From: Promethearchaeota archaeon
Lineage (GTDB): Archaea > Asgardarchaeota > Lokiarchaeia > Sigyniarchaeales > SOKP01
Length of the DNA: 64,000 nucleotides
Assembly (NCBI GenBank): GCA_030603385.1
Contig: JAUVXW010000022.1
Location: forward strand, 1-64,000
Direction: 5' to 3'
The position numbers were made by a program, and so were the translations under genes. Under the pieces are notes generated by a model. The model was given only the letters and a program-made list of their open reading frames with translations. It was not told where the DNA came from and did not search any database. Shown here piece after piece: positions 31,660 to 37,204 of this stretch (position 1 is its first letter; each line of letters begins with the position of its first letter).

Positions 31660-32506
31660 TTACTTTATCAGAAAAAGCTTAATTAGAAAAATAAATAGAT
31701 TTAAATCATTAAGAAGCGAAAAATTTGAGATAAGATAATCAAAAATATTTTCTTCGATAAAAAATTTTATTGATGTGAAATATCCCTCTTCATCCTTAAG
31801 GATTTCTACCATACGCGTGATTAAATTTATGATTTCTTTTTCCACAATAACCATATCACAGTTCATAGGGTCTATGTTAATAATATTGATTCCTGTCTTT
31901 CTCTGAAATGTTATACTGCTCAATTCTGGATTCTTTTTTACAATATCTAATTGAGAGTAATTTTGGAACATATAATCGATTTTCTTATAAATTCTTTTCT
32001 TTTTTTTTTTTGGATAAATGAACTTCAATTACATTCATAACTAAATTTAATATTTGTTGAAATATCCCTAACATATCGAAGAATTCAGCAACTGTGGTTA
32101 TACGTTCAGCTTGTTTCCATTGAGTATAATATTCTTCTATAATCTTTTCAAATGGCTTGTAGATTTCAACATTTCCTGCCCATTTACTCCCCCACCGATT
32201 TTTTTCCTTAGCGTATTGTTGTATAAAAGTGTGGCGTATTACATCCAATCTCGATCTTAAGGTATCAGTACTTACTTCTTTAGAATCTGCTCCTATAAAT
32301 AGAAGATTAGTTTCCTTATCTAGTATGTAAACCCATCTTAATCCACCCATCTCAATAGATTCTATTCCTTGTTTAAATTCCACTATAGTAAATTGATTTA
32401 GAGCTGTAAGAAGTCCAGAAACAAGATCTTCATTTACTGGAAAATCCATGAATGGTTTGTACACTAGAGTAATTCCTGAATCAGATTCCATAACCCAAAT
32501 GTTAAT
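31660..32506 (-). CDS. longin-like domain protein, split by a frameshift in a long T run (~32000-32011)
   Basis: NIWVMESDSGITLVYK..DLVSGLLTALNQF..IESIEMGGLRWVY longin-like pattern; ORFs 31985..32491 and 31660..32028 overlap at the homopolymer; candidate ATT start 32506. Confidence 0.6.
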
Positions 32507-33976: not shown

Positions 33977-34243
33977 TTATTTCTTTTTTTTTAGAAAATC
34001 TGGAATCATCCCATCAATTCCGAGACTCTTCAAAATCGTATCTCTTATATTCATCTGAATGGTCAAATCTGACATTGTTCTCATCGTAGCGTCTAATGAT
34101 TTGCTCATTTCTTTAATAGTTTGAGAAGTCAACTTTAAAGAATCCCTAATAGTGATACTGGTTTCATGCAATTCTTCTGTTAAACAATTTATACTTTTTC
34201 TTAATTCAGTAAGTTCCATTCTTATCTCTTTAATTCCAGCCAT
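33977..34243 (-). CDS. small coiled-coil protein
   Basis: Heptad pattern IRMELTELRKSINCLTEEL; ends IPDFLKKKK. Confidence 0.65.
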   Translation of the reverse strand: MAGIKEIRMELTELRKSINCLTEELHETSITIRDSLKLTSQTIKEMSKSLDATMRTMSDLTIQMNIRDTILKSLGIDGMIPDFLKKKK

Positions 34244-34364: not shown

Positions 34365-35054
34365 TTATAAGATATTTAAACCAAAGATACTTACACCCCA
34401 AATCCATAACGCAAATCCTTGAACTAAGCAAAAAATCATAATAATGAAAGCAATAGGAGGCCATGATAGAAATTTTGATATTGTTTTCAATACGCCAACA
34501 TAGAATTTCACGGTGAGGGCAACGATGACTGTTATTATAATAAATATTATTACCAGCAACCATTTTGGATTAATCACACCAGCAATTAATTTAACTGCTG
34601 AATCTGGTACGATTACAGCAACAATTATGGCTGTAGCTGTCCCTGCTAAAAGACCAATAATACTAGATAATGGAAGATCGCTTATTGGCTTCATGAACAT
34701 GGTAATCCCTATGACGATCAAAAAGATACATGTGAAGTGATTTGCAGCATCTTCGGTGACATCTCGATATTCAAAACTAGGAGGTATGTTTCTGATTAAC
34801 CCAATAACACCTGACCATATAACGAATATACCAAGTACTAAACCAAGATAAGATAATCCCCGTAAAAACTTTGTTATATCAAATTCTTCCTCTTCAGCTT
34901 TTCTTTTTGTAAATGATCCTCTTCGCTTTCTTTCAAAACCTAACCATGTAATTGCCATTAGGCCACTTAAAACCATCATGATTGCAGCTGATTCACCAAC
35001 CCAACTAAAAAATCCTCGGATCGCATCCCAATAATCAAATAGCACATAAATCAC
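34365..35054 (-). CDS. multi-pass membrane protein
   Basis: About six hydrophobic segments in 229 aa. Confidence 0.75.
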   Translation of the reverse strand: MIYVLFDYWDAIRGFFSWVGESAAIMMVLSGLMAITWLGFERKRRGSFTKRKAEEEEFDITKFLRGLSYLGLVLGIFVIWSGVIGLIRNIPPSFEYRDVTEDAANHFTCIFLIVIGITMFMKPISDLPLSSIIGLLAGTATAIIVAVIVPDSAVKLIAGVINPKWLLVIIFIIITVIVALTVKFYVGVLKTISKFLSWPPIAFIIMIFCLVQGFALWIWGVSIFGLNIL

Positions 35055-35239
35055 TTTTTTGAAATTTCTAATTTTAAATATAAGTTAGATTTTGGTTTTA
35101 AAAATTTATTCTAAAAAATAGGGTTTAAGAGAGTGGTTAAATTTAAGCTAAGAATTCTACAAACTTATCTAATATAAAAATAATATATTTATTCTTTTAT
35201 CTATTACATAATTAAAAAACTTCTAATTAACCGATTCAA

Positions 35240-35401
35240 ATGTCTGAGTGGAAAAATAGGATTCATACTTCGATCTGTAATGATTCGTATAATACAGGTT
35301 GAATTACGATCGATCAAATCATAAATAAAATTAAAAATTTAAGACTAAAGAGACAATCAAGAAAAAAAGCAAAACATAATAACAAAAATCTCAAAGATTA
35401 G
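35240..35401 (+). CDS. candidate small selenoprotein / UGA-readthrough peptide A (53 aa, TGA at codon 21)
   Basis: MSEWKNRIHTSICNDSYNTG-(TGA 35300)-ITIDQIINKIKNLRLKRQSRKKAKHNNKNLKD*; frame stays open 32 codons past TGA. Confidence 0.5.
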
Positions 35402-35453
35402 CTTAGTAAATGCTAGAAGCTAATCTTAGAAATTCCGCAATGAATTCGAGATT
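35387..35453 (+). ncRNA. three-way-junction RNA element, copy 1 (candidate cis recoding element)
   Basis: P1 AATCTC/GAGATT; P2 AGATTAGCTT/AAGCTAATCT with loop AGTAAATGCTAG; P3 AATTC/GAATT with loop CGCAAT. Confidence 0.7.
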
Positions 35454-35606
35454 AAATAACCTTCTTCTTTTTATTAATAATTAACAAAAATTAATTCTTT
35501 TTTATAAAAAATTAACTTCTTAGCTATTGATTTTATCTTTTATAATCGTCATCCTTTAATCTCTCATTCGTTTCTGATTACATAAGATATTAATAGGTAT
35601 ATTAAA

Positions 35607-35753
35607 ATGGAAGAAGAAGAAGCTTACCTCGATTTAGAATTTGATGATGGTTGTTATACTACAACTTGATCAATGATTAATATGTGGTATCAAAGAGCTC
35701 GTAAATTACAAAAACTAAAAGAAGAAGAAGTAAAAATAACAAATAATGATTAA
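35607..35753 (+). CDS. candidate small selenoprotein / UGA-readthrough peptide B (48 aa, TGA at codon 21)
   Basis: MEEEEAYLDLEFDDGCYTTT-(TGA 35667)-SMINMWYQRARKLQKLKEEEVKITNND*; AGGT RBS-like site upstream; frame open 27 codons past TGA. Confidence 0.55.
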
Positions 35754-35817
35754 ATCTCAAGAAATTAAATCATAAAATGTTAGGATTTAGTTTAGGGTTC
35801 CGCAAGAACCAGAGATT
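35753..35817 (+). ncRNA. three-way-junction RNA element, copy 2 (candidate cis recoding element)
   Basis: P1 AATCTC/GAGATT; P2 AAATTAAATC/GATTTAGTTT with loop ATAAAATGTTAG; P3 GGTTC/GAACC with loop CGCAA; stems covary with copy 1. Confidence 0.7.
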
Positions 35818-35836
35818 AAAATAATATCTTTTTTAT

Positions 35837-37204
35837 TTAAATAGAATTGTGTTTTGACCCTTCTCCTATTTTTCTATAAATAAATCCTTTACTTTCTATG
35901 ATTTTCTTATCAAAAATATTACGACCGTCGATAAGAATTGGTTTGTTCTTCATAGTTTGTTTTAAAACATCAAGATCAACAGAATAATATTGCTTGTGAT
36001 TTGTCGCAAAAATCAAGACATCGGCATCCTTCACGGCAGCATCAAAATCGGCTGTTAATTCAGTTTCTTTATAATCTTTTTCTCTGACCCAGGGATCGTG
36101 AGCGATGTATTCTATGTTATGAGAATGGTACCTATTTTTCAAAAAATCTACAATTCTTTCAGTAGGTGTATTTCTTGTATCGTCGCAATCTGCTTTATAT
36201 GCAACACCCATTAAAGTAATTTTGATGTTATCATGTTTGTCTGCTTCTTTTAAAGCGTCCTCCATTAATTCAACCGTATGTTCTGGCATAAAATCATTCA
36301 ATTCTCTACCATAGGGTAATAATTTCACTCGGTCGAGAAATTTCTTTGGTGTATAAGTTTGAAGGCCGTACATTAACAACCATGGATCCTTCGTGAGACA
36401 ATGCCCTCCAACTCCGCTGCCAGGAAAGTGCATCATCCTATCATGTCTGTAATTTATTAATTCTATAATTTCAAAAATGTTCCTATTAAAATCCTCAGCT
36501 ACTAGTGCCATTTCGTTGGCAAAAGCAATATTTACATCTCTATAAGTGTTTTCTATACATTTTGTTAACTCTGCAGTCAAAGTATCTGTAACCTGAAGTT
36601 CTTTCTTAACAACTTTTCCATAGAGAAATTTACCATTCTCATTCGCTTTCTCGCATCCACCACCTATAACTCTCGGAAAATCTGTAATATACTCAAGCAT
36701 TTTTCCAGGCATCACCCGCTCAAATGAAAACACTAGATAAAAATCTTCCCCTCTCTTCATACCACTTCCTTTTTCTAAAATCGGTTGTACAATATTATCA
36801 GTAGTCCCTGGTGCTACAGTTGATTCTATAATTACAGTAACCCCCTTTTTCAATTTTGGAGCAATTAATTTTGATACATCTCTTAAAGATTCATAACGTG
36901 GAATTTTATGGTCATCAACGGGGGTTTGGACATCAATCAAAATATAATCTGCCTCATCTATAGCATCATATTTGTCTGTTACGTAAAACTTTTTATTTTT
37001 TACAATACGAGCAATTAGATCATCTAATCCTGGTTCATCTCCTTCGAAAGGGGTCTTACCACTATTTAAACAGTCTATTTTCCAGCCGGATCTTTTCGAT
37101 CGACGTTGAATGCCTGTAACATAAAAATCTTCTACATCCGCTAAGAGTGCGCTCATTGGAATTCCAACATAACCCATTCCGATTACTATTATGTTAGTTG
37201 TCAT
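35837..37204 (-). CDS. nucleotide-sugar dehydrogenase (UDP-ManNAc/GlcNAc dehydrogenase family)
   Basis: GMGYVG, IESTVAPGTT, ERVMPG, KCIENTYRDVNIA, GVGGHCLTKDP, DTRNTP. Confidence 0.93.
   Translation of the reverse strand: MTTNIIVIGMGYVGIPMSALLADVEDFYVTGIQRRSKRSGWKIDCLNSGKTPFEGDEPGLDDLIARIVKNKKFYVTDKYDAIDEADYILIDVQTPVDDHKIPRYESLRDVSKLIAPKLKKGVTVIIESTVAPGTTDNIVQPILEKGSGMKRGEDFYLVFSFERVMPGKMLEYITDFPRVIGGGCEKANENGKFLYGKVVKKELQVTDTLTAELTKCIENTYRDVNIAFANEMALVAEDFNRNIFEIIELINYRHDRMMHFPGSGVGGHCLTKDPWLLMYGLQTYTPKKFLDRVKLLPYGRELNDFMPEHTVELMEDALKEADKHDNIKITLMGVAYKADCDDTRNTPTERIVDFLKNRYHSHNIEYIAHDPWVREKDYKETELTADFDAAVKDADVLIFATNHKQYYSVDLDVLKQTMKNKPILIDGRNIFDKKIIESKGFIYRKIGEGSKHNSI

Follow-up and report, generated by a model that had tools for sequence, protein, structure and literature searches.

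Two tandem mini-genes with an in-frame UGA codon and a downstream SECIS-like RNA in a Lokiarchaeial genome: probable new families of small selenoproteins

Organization of the locus

The stretch of DNA analysed here, which we will refer to as the window, comprises positions 1 to 64,000 of contig JAUVXW010000022.1 from a Promethearchaeota archaeon (assembly GCA_030603385.1), a member of the Lokiarchaeia. Within this window, a 780-nt gap between two leftward genes carries two rightward cassettes, which follow each other with a period of 366-367 nt. Each of these cassettes consists of a small open reading frame (ORF), in which codon 21 is UGA, and of a structured RNA element situated downstream of this codon. 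These two frames (ORF A and ORF B) and their RNA elements form the subject of this work, as they very probably represent genes for selenocysteine (Sec)-containing peptides together with the SECIS elements (Sec insertion sequences) that serve them. The coordinates of all features are summarized in Table 1.

ORF A starts with the sequence MSEWK and contains a cysteine at position 13 (C13) ahead of U21 (U denoting Sec); it stays open for 32 codons beyond the TGA, its C-terminal part is both basic and amphipathic, and its final five codons fall within copy A of the RNA element. ORF B remains open for a further 27 codons and has an acidic N-terminal part, followed by C16-x4-U21 and by a helix of the form xM[ILV]NMWYxRAxKLxKL. 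A preliminary description of the window, made from the sequence alone, had already drawn attention to this layout, and its observations are borne out when read against the sequence. These include the two cassettes of about 366 bp in an intergenic gap, the coordinates of both frames with TGA as codon 21 and the numbers of codons that follow it, the residues C13 or C16, Y17, T19, I24, and L34 around the TGA, and the start of the element 87 nt (copy A, at 35387) or 86 nt (copy B, at 35753) past the T of the respective TGA. With the local base composition, the chance of both frames staying open for such a length past the TGA is ~0.002, and the comparative data presented below place the observation far beyond chance. 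A sequencing error, with TGG or TGC misread as TGA, finds no support either, as metagenome contigs of close strains (95-97% identical), which come from the samples of another study, span the whole stretch and leave both TGA codons unchanged.

Table 1. Features of the two cassettes, their surroundings and the Sec-related loci of the same genome. Positions are those of the window, except where a contig handle (C1, C41, etc.) precedes them
Feature	Position	Strand	Remarks
Membrane-protein gene	34365-35054	leftward	Left border of the gap
AT-rich promoter-like block upstream of ORF A (ATAAAAATAATATATTTATT..CTTTTATCT..)	35168..35214	+	Retained by orthologues of the genus, at about -70 to -45 relative to the ATG
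ORF A, probable family A mini-selenoprotein	35240..35401	+	53 aa; ATG at 35240, stop TAG at 35399-35401
UGA codon 21 of ORF A, probably read as Sec	35300..35302	+	TGA in 36/36 aligned orthologues
SECIS-like three-way-junction RNA, copy A	35387..35453	+	Covariance model 80.3 bits, fold, covariation
T-rich run following element A, probable transcription stop of archaeal type	35462..35475	+	Comparable T-run after the element at other loci
Promoter-like block upstream of ORF B (TTTTATCTTTTATAATCGTCATCCTTTAATCTC)	35529..35563	+	Conserved at about -80 to -45 in orthologues of the genus
Shine-Dalgarno-like TAGGTA	35594..35599	+	8-13 nt before the ATG of ORF B; GGTG/AGGT there in most orthologues
ORF B, probable family B mini-selenoprotein	35607..35753	+	48 aa; ATG at 35607, stop TAA at 35751-35753
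UGA codon 21 of ORF B, probably read as Sec	35667..35669	+	TGA in 34/38, TGT in 4/38 aligned orthologues
SECIS-like three-way-junction RNA, copy B	35753..35817	+	Covariance model 76.8 bits, fold, covariation
T-run after element B, likely transcription stop	35828..35838	+	From the sequence
UDP-glucose dehydrogenase gene	35837-37204	-	Right border of the gap
tRNA-Sec	C41:48216-48308		Adjoins SepSecS
SepSecS	C41:48516-49673
SelB-like gene	C41:42328-43230		5 kb from tRNA-Sec/SepSecS
PSTK-like gene	C1:4327-5079
Canonical Lokiarchaeial SECIS elements (genome G000)	C4:200283, C10:102572, C10:120878, C20:5929, C20:48003, C26:64833(-), C34:53480(-), C47:3236		Strict pattern

Two protein families that are conserved across the UGA codon

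The region around ORFs A and B is conserved in nearly all genomes of the genus, and translation of the homologous loci with UGA read as U gave rise to two distinct protein families. The consensus of family A is MSEWKxK..(acidic)..[FY]C[TS]G-U-GIIDG[IV]IxCIxxIKKRRxxRK, whereas that of family B is M(acidic)DYLDLEFDDxCYxT[ST]-U-[GS]M[ILV]NMWYxRAxKLRKL. A Cys is found 3-5 residues upstream of U, as in known selenol/thiol motifs, and in most members of family A it forms part of the sequence C-x-x-U-G, reminiscent of a metal knuckle or of a CxxC motif with redox function. In a whole-genome profile search family A was detected in 101 of the 161 genomes of the class. With a broader profile (A5) it was identified in 105 of the 134 genomes, belonging to 10 of the 13 genera, of one family of the Lokiarchaeia/Promethearchaeia, and exactly one in-frame TGA is present in each of the 106 real matches. 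No member of family A was found by this profile in the 265 other genomes of the phylum; a single weak match outside the family, located inside an ORF of 575 residues, was regarded as spurious. Family B is present in 64 of the 161 genomes of the class, all of them from one family and four genera, and its 66 matches comprise 62 with one in-frame TGA and four without.

The selective constraints on the two sides of the UGA were estimated by the Nei-Gojobori method from 36 family-A and 38 family-B sequences. Before U, the ratio of nonsynonymous to synonymous substitution rates (dN/dS) is 0.25 in family A and 0.19 in family B, and over the 20 codons after U it is 0.36 and 0.28, respectively, with dS values of 1.3-1.5 in both families, indicating that synonymous change is near-saturated. 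Due to these low ratios after the UGA, the stretch beyond this codon is seen to evolve as a protein-coding sequence. The low-complexity tails of the ORFs are near neutral (dN/dS of 0.9-1.1). The motifs NMWYxRA and GIIDG are preserved by means of differing codons, and neither a TAA or TAG at codon 21 nor a frameshift beyond it was observed in more than 100 species. Conservation of the homologues on both sides of the TGA, which the preliminary description had proposed as a check, is thus a property of both families.

In four of the family-B matches (from genomes G022, G033, G097, and G030) the aligned codon is TGT, which specifies Cys. As judged from the flanking sequences, these Cys forms (Cys-B) go back to at least two events, one seen in G022 alone and the other in the trio G033/G097/G030, and no codon besides TGA and TGT was ever observed at this position of family B. 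Since Cys is the sole replacement, the codon bears the classical signature of a Sec site, which argues against a true stop and also against read-through by another amino acid.

The complement of these genes differs in some genomes of the genus. One of them contains three family-B genes and five elements (locus L086 at G006:C1:189500-191800, together with G006:C1:2131811-2132405), from which it is evident that the cassette can duplicate. In another, which is 99% complete, no A or B gene is present, and all that is left of the element at the corresponding locus (L085, G012:C64:11244-12310) is a degenerate remnant (30.7 bits) without an ORF, indicating that the locus was lost there, though the Sec machinery is present. 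Additionally, in two species (loci L011:1370-1558 and L015:1923-2111) the family-A ORF terminates at a second UGA, which lies within the element. Here, UGA would be read as Sec at codon 25 and as a stop ~100 nt later, the second codon presumably being too near to the SECIS.

Structure of the downstream RNA element

The same fold is obtained for both copies of the element (z = -3.2 and -2.0), the length of which is 65-67 nt. In copy A, a closing stem (AAUCUC/GAGAUU) is combined with a hairpin that has a 9-10-bp stem and a 12-nt loop (AGUAAAUGCUAG) and with a short hairpin carrying the loop CGCAAU. Copy B has an identical closing stem, a hairpin with a 10-bp stem and a 12-nt loop (AUAAAAUGUUAG), and the short hairpin GGUUC-CGCAA-GAACC. 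For 41 copies collected by hand, RNAalifold gave a structure of three parts, in which the closing stem has 5 bp, the long hairpin a 10-bp stem and a 12-nt loop, and the short hairpin a stem of 4-6 bp; compensatory changes occur at 14 of the 19 pairs. A covariance model (R1) recovered 86 copies of the element across 52 loci. In this larger set 96% of the cells are paired, a share that falls to 20-56% once the partners are shifted by 1-3 columns, and each of the 10 long-hairpin pairs and each of the four short-hairpin pairs shows double changes. The closing stem AUCUC/GAGAU is essentially invariant in these copies, i.e., it shows no covariation. Within the loop of the long hairpin (11-12 nt) the sequences AAA and UAG are invariant, the loop of the short hairpin is YGCAA, or GCGA or GCAG in some copies, and the long helix is flanked by AA[AGU][AGU] on its 5' side and by variable bases on its 3' side.

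The closing stem AAUCUCAAAGA (35384-35401) also encodes the C-terminal residues N-L-K-[DE] of family A. The conservation of these residues is really that of the RNA and not of the protein, the stop codon being located within the structure.

A search of Rfam at E values up to 10 revealed no SECIS family near the ORFs, the only matches being chance microRNA-like ones to the long hairpin on both strands. A kink-turn at the junction was also considered, for which the candidate sequences included AAGA/UAG beside the long hairpin, the AUGA before the short hairpin and the GA of GAGAU, and it was rejected as none of these is conserved in the alignment. Similarly, no conserved register for tandem G.A pairs is present in the element alignment.

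Association of the element with the Sec-type genes

In this genome, the covariance model detects only the two copies described above (80 and 77 bits), the next best match scoring 25 bits. The element is found in 108 of the 135 genomes of the family, mostly in 1-2 copies each, and at each of the places checked in this family an A or B ORF ends. The model also revealed a divergent family-A member in another genus, which had been missed by our first protein profile (A3) and was recovered by A5.

The spacing between the UGA and the element varies little, its median being 87 nt in family A and 84 nt in family B. With respect to the final base of the stop codon, the start of the element lies from -36 to +17 nt, and up to 175 nt away for A genes in loci of an operon type. 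The latter loci occur in two genera; ~20 nt separate A from B in them, B is preceded by a Shine-Dalgarno-like GAGGTG, and a single element is present, located after B at ~250 nt from the upstream UGA of A. The count of elements tracks the count of Sec ORFs or operons.

No element was found for the Cys-B genes of G033, G097, and G030 by a covariance search with filters off, and the Cys-B gene of G022 is followed by a degraded element that scores 45 bits, as compared to 60-83 bits for intact ones, with changes in the closing pair and in the short loop. The Sec-containing A genes that adjoin these Cys-B genes have retained their elements.

Sec machinery and canonical SECIS elements of the genome

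The assembly (3.9 Mb, 31% G+C, 94% complete) contains a tRNA-Sec, SepSecS and genes of the PSTK-like and SelB-like types (Table 1), which the preliminary description had proposed to confirm, along with four vhuD genes that have two in-frame UGA codons each. Since SepSecS is present in 153 of the 161 genomes of the class, its co-occurrence with families A and B is uninformative. A strict pattern for canonical SECIS (RUGA, 9 bp, an 11-nt loop ending in AG, 9 bp, then GA or AA) has eight matches in this genome, all of them with AUGA, and none anywhere on the contig of the window, the two elements included. The published form of the Lokiarchaeial SECIS (lokiSECIS), consisting of AUGA, a stem of ~9 bp, a loop of 11 nt that is A-rich and ends in AG, and then GA or AA, lies behind three of the vhuD genes, and the SECIS of the fourth (on C26), which did not parse cleanly by eye, was found by the strict pattern scan. 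In stem length and loop motif, the long hairpin of our element agrees with the eight canonical elements of this genome, and one loop, GAAAAUAUUAG, occurs unchanged both in an element of family B (L068) and in a vhuD SECIS.

Proposed decoding of the UGA codons and alternative explanations

Based upon these observations, we propose that ORF A and ORF B constitute two real genes, transcribed separately, whose products are paralogous mini-selenoproteins of ~50 residues, and that their UGA codon 21 would be decoded as Sec by the Sec machinery of the archaeal/eukaryote type. The decoding would be directed by the structured RNA, which lies ~85 nt downstream at the stop codon or overlapping it. We consider it highly probable that A and B encode Sec at this position under the direction of the downstream element; our confidence in any specific biochemical role of the peptides is much lower. 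The RNA would represent a lineage-specific variant of SECIS that has kept helix II and the apical loop (RAAAAU..UAG) of its Lokiarchaeial counterpart, and in which the AUGA/GA kink-turn core would have been replaced by a three-way junction formed with the invariant AUCUC/GAGAU stem and a second hairpin with a GNRA-like loop. If so, the apical loop and the helix would constitute the recognition part that is common with lokiSECIS, and the bend introduced elsewhere by the kink-turn may come from the junction.

Of the claims of the preliminary description, that of unannotated Sec peptides of ~50 residues is supported by coding across the UGA, by the exchange of Sec and Cys in family B and by the presence of Sec machinery. 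Its suggestion that the downstream element is a SECIS holds with respect to association with the genes, loss in the Cys forms and likeness of the loop, and it is upon these properties and not upon membership of a known SECIS family that we base this role; the element is, however, not a standard Lokiarchaeial SECIS.

Several observations weigh against our proposal. The AUGA/GA core, present in all of the Asgard and eukaryotic SECIS described and in all eight canonical SECIS elements of this genome, is missing from both elements of the cassettes. SelD, which the preliminary description had listed for confirmation along with the other components of the Sec machinery, was not confidently found in the 94%-complete assembly, where the TIGR00476 model gave only sub-threshold matches of the aminoimidazole ribonucleotide (AIR)-synthase-like type and none of these contains a UGA. 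No Cys form of family A was found in the profile searches. The ORF A of the window and its closest relatives lack the Cys of CxxU and instead have a Cys at -8, which weakens a simple CxxU redox model, and a comparison of the synteny loci yielded no functional lead from the neighbouring genes. Lastly, the proposed Sec insertion and the recruitment of an insertion factor by the RNA are both derived from comparative sequence evidence.

These points also give some room to other explanations. The absence of a canonical SECIS core, together with the fixed distance of ~85 nt from the UGA, which fits a structure-stimulated signal as well, would be consistent with the UGA being read through as Trp, Cys, or Arg, the downstream structure stimulating decoding by a near-cognate or suppressor tRNA in the manner of viral read-through signals. 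However, on this explanation it is difficult to account for Cys (TGT, four cases) as the only replacement, for the loss of the element exactly where Cys replaces UGA, for an apical loop that equals that of a bona fide SECIS in the same genome and for the Cys 3-5 residues upstream in the pattern of known selenol/thiol motifs; in the operon-type loci, moreover, the upstream UGA is served by the one element ~250 nt away, as fits a SECIS, which acts at a distance. Read-through of this kind is thus given only a small probability. The probability is smaller still that the peptides are indeed selenoproteins and that Sec insertion is directed in some other manner, the three-way-junction RNA serving as a terminator, a stability element or a small RNA. 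Such a role would agree with the missing core, with the T-run after each copy and with a closing stem that is invariant and not covarying and could reflect the binding of another factor. Nevertheless, no other SECIS is indicated by the strict pattern on the contig or by Rfam near the ORFs, loss or degradation of the element is seen only behind the Cys forms, its number tracks that of the Sec ORFs or operons, and its long hairpin bears the apical loop motif of SECIS.

The least probable of these explanations is that the TGA codons are true stops, in which case the locus would encode micropeptides of 20 residues, or nothing, and the conservation downstream would be that of a non-coding RNA or 3' untranslated region in which the frame is open by coincidence. 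The failure of gene callers to annotate the ORFs, the very AT-rich DNA and the dN/dS of ~0.9-1.1 in the last part of each ORF could be cited in its favour. It is, however, already contradicted by the comparative data, viz. the dN/dS of 0.28-0.36 in the 20 codons after the TGA at near-saturated synonymous change, the frame that remains uninterrupted and unshifted in more than 100 species, the maintenance of NMWYxRA and GIIDG through differing codons and the Cys forms that read straight across the codon.

Properties and possible function of the peptides

Neither peptide has a match in Pfam, and the members of the two families range in length from 44 to 58 residues. The median net charge is +6 for family A and -3.5 for family B; in the latter the N-terminal half is very acidic (median -8) and the helix is basic. 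For the natural Cys form of B, a disordered N-terminus followed by a single helix (residues 14-44) is predicted, with predicted local distance difference test (pLDDT) values of 92-93 at residues 21-40. Each of the peptides would consist of a disordered N-terminal segment and one long amphipathic helix, with CxxU (A) or Cx4U (B) at the start of the helix. A look-up in the ESM Atlas with the Cys form of B gave no usable match. Inspection of the alignments shows that A and B share a hydrophobic spacing after U (+3, +6/7, +10, +13), and in a profile comparison the two families are matched with 58.7% probability (E value of 9.5e-5) and with their U columns aligned. Based upon this spacing and the alignment of the U columns, families A and B are probably paralogues.

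The placement of CxxU or Cx4U at the start of an amphipathic helix is suggestive of a selenol/thiol redox or metal site. The preliminary description had also mentioned modified-peptide precursors, which we rank below a redox or metal site, as no modification enzymes were found near the ORFs and none is conserved nearby. A joint action of the basic A and the acidic B peptides is possible, and a parallel pairing of the two could bring their Cys/Sec motifs together; a homodimer prediction for the natural Cys form of B had a score of 0.02, which speaks neither for nor against a homodimer. As a more speculative extension, which as a whole we regard as less likely than not, the Lokiarchaeia may possess a second, kink-turn-less class of SECIS, a three-way junction that has only helix II and the apical loop in common with the eukaryote-like SECIS and is dedicated to a lineage-specific basic/acidic pair of mini-selenoproteins, in which amphipathic helices would bring about a Cys2Sec2 redox or metal centre, and the insertion factor would read the apical loop and not the AUGA/GA quartet.

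Transcription signals and neighbouring genes

The preliminary description had interpreted similar motifs upstream of the two ORFs as separate promoters. These motifs do lie within blocks that are conserved in the genus (Table 1), and separate promoters for A and B, as well as a ribosome-binding site before B, would fit with the conserved blocks and with the GGTG-like motif, the promoter role itself being a plausible reading of this conservation. The T-runs that follow the elements may similarly act as transcription terminators. In one metatranscriptome, two short contigs (103 and 72 nt, ~92% identical) cover positions 35669-35793, i.e., the coding part of ORF B after the UGA running into element B, and no RNA cover was seen elsewhere in the stretch. 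As DNA carry-over is possible, these contigs hint at best weakly that transcription takes place in a relative.

The neighbouring genes encode an unknown membrane protein, UDP-glucose dehydrogenase, a 4Fe-4S protein, a rhomboid protein, an 88-residue coiled-coil-like protein and a weakly longin-like protein, and synteny with several of them is maintained across genera. In 13-14 of 17 loci, drawn from several genera, the genes for the 88-residue coiled-coil-like protein (33977-34243, minus strand) and UDP-glucose dehydrogenase (also on the minus strand) have remained beside those of the peptides; no functional connection to the latter was found. Further away, on the minus strand at 31660-32491, the window contains two overlapping ORFs (31660..32028 and 31985..32491) where relatives have one ORF of 282 residues, an example of which (L087:1438-2286) has a weak longin-like match in Pfam. 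This split is a frameshift, a pseudogene or an assembly error.

Relationship to known selenoproteins and SECIS elements

A survey of the Asgard selenoproteome (PMC11227280) and a 2026 review (PMC13188914) include the proteins SelD, FrhA/VhuU, HdrA, FrhD/VhuD, Prx-like, AhpF-N-like, and DsbA-like. Families A and B are absent from these Asgard/prokaryotic selenoprotein inventories and, as noted above, have no Pfam match, in agreement with the earlier statement that the peptides are unlike the known archaeal selenoprotein families. We take them to be two new families of mini-selenoproteins, the SECIS of which would have a new architecture, and they would add two to the seven families listed for the Asgard archaea. 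In the original study of Lokiarchaeota, selenoproteins were searched for by the canonical SECIS pattern or by homology, and by either route families A and B would be missed. More generally, genes of ~50 codons are not called by gene finders, and the discovery pipelines need either a canonical SECIS or Cys homologues, neither of which is offered by A and B; in a large protein database, Cys-B is represented by two clusters only, both of them hypothetical proteins from the JGI. In such cases, a covariance model can find members that protein searches miss. The Lokiarchaeia serve as a model for the origin of eukaryotic SECIS, and a SECIS with the helix and the apical loop and without the AUGA/GA core, if functional, would be a natural mutant showing which of its parts are needed by the insertion machinery. 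A reporter system for Sec is available in Methanococcus (PMC9622424, PMC11881835), a host with another type of SECIS.

With the known Asgard selenoproteins, families A and B have in common the organisms in which they occur, the Sec machinery, a UGA at a Cys-equivalent position and occasional Cys orthologues. However, they show no sequence or Pfam relationship to these proteins, consist of only 44-58 residues with a predicted single helix, are restricted to one family of Lokiarchaeia and are associated with a differing form of SECIS. A thioredoxin-like fold around CxxU was considered, as most family-A members resemble the thioredoxin-fold selenoproteins of the SelW/SelT/SelH/Rdx type in having CxxU at the start of a helix. 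It was rejected, since such a fold would need far longer peptides than these, which lack a Pfam match and, in the case of Cys-B, are predicted as a single helix; additionally, family B has Cx4U, and in ORF A of the window the Cys is at -8 and not at -3. Very small archaeal selenopeptides are not without precedent. In Methanococcus voltae, the Sec-containing hydrogenase subunit VhuU is likewise very small and has a gene to itself; it represents a split-off C-terminal piece of the large subunit of [NiFeSe] hydrogenase and has a metal-ligand motif of the DPUxxC type. In contrast to VhuU, A and B contain no DPUxxC-type motif and have no adjoining hydrogenase genes.

With regard to the RNA, euryarchaeal SECIS elements have a GAA_A bulge and GC-rich stems, whereas the element described here has AU-rich stems and no GAA_A bulge. 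The Asgard eSECIS-like elements described thus far all possess the [A/G]UGA...[G/A]A core (PMC4989117; PMC11227280). In comparison to lokiSECIS (Asgard type I eSECIS-like; Mariotti, 2016, PMC4989117; Huang, 2024, PMC11227280), our element has neither the AUGA 5' of the helix nor the GA/AA 3' of it, its helix is part of a three-way junction with the invariant AUCUC/GAGAU closing stem, a second hairpin capped by YGCAA/GCGA (GNRA-like) is present, it follows the UGA at a short, almost constant distance of ~85 nt, and the stop codon often lies within it. Due to the absence of the AUGA/GA core, i.e., of the kink-turn, it is not filed as a member of lokiSECIS, although the helix, the loop and the 3' location all agree with this class. 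Like lokiSECIS, it is found in the 3' region beside the stop codon, it has a helix II of 9-10 bp and an apical loop of 11-12 nt that is A-rich at first and closes with (U)AG, and a single copy can serve two adjacent genes, as is the case for hdrA-vhuD.

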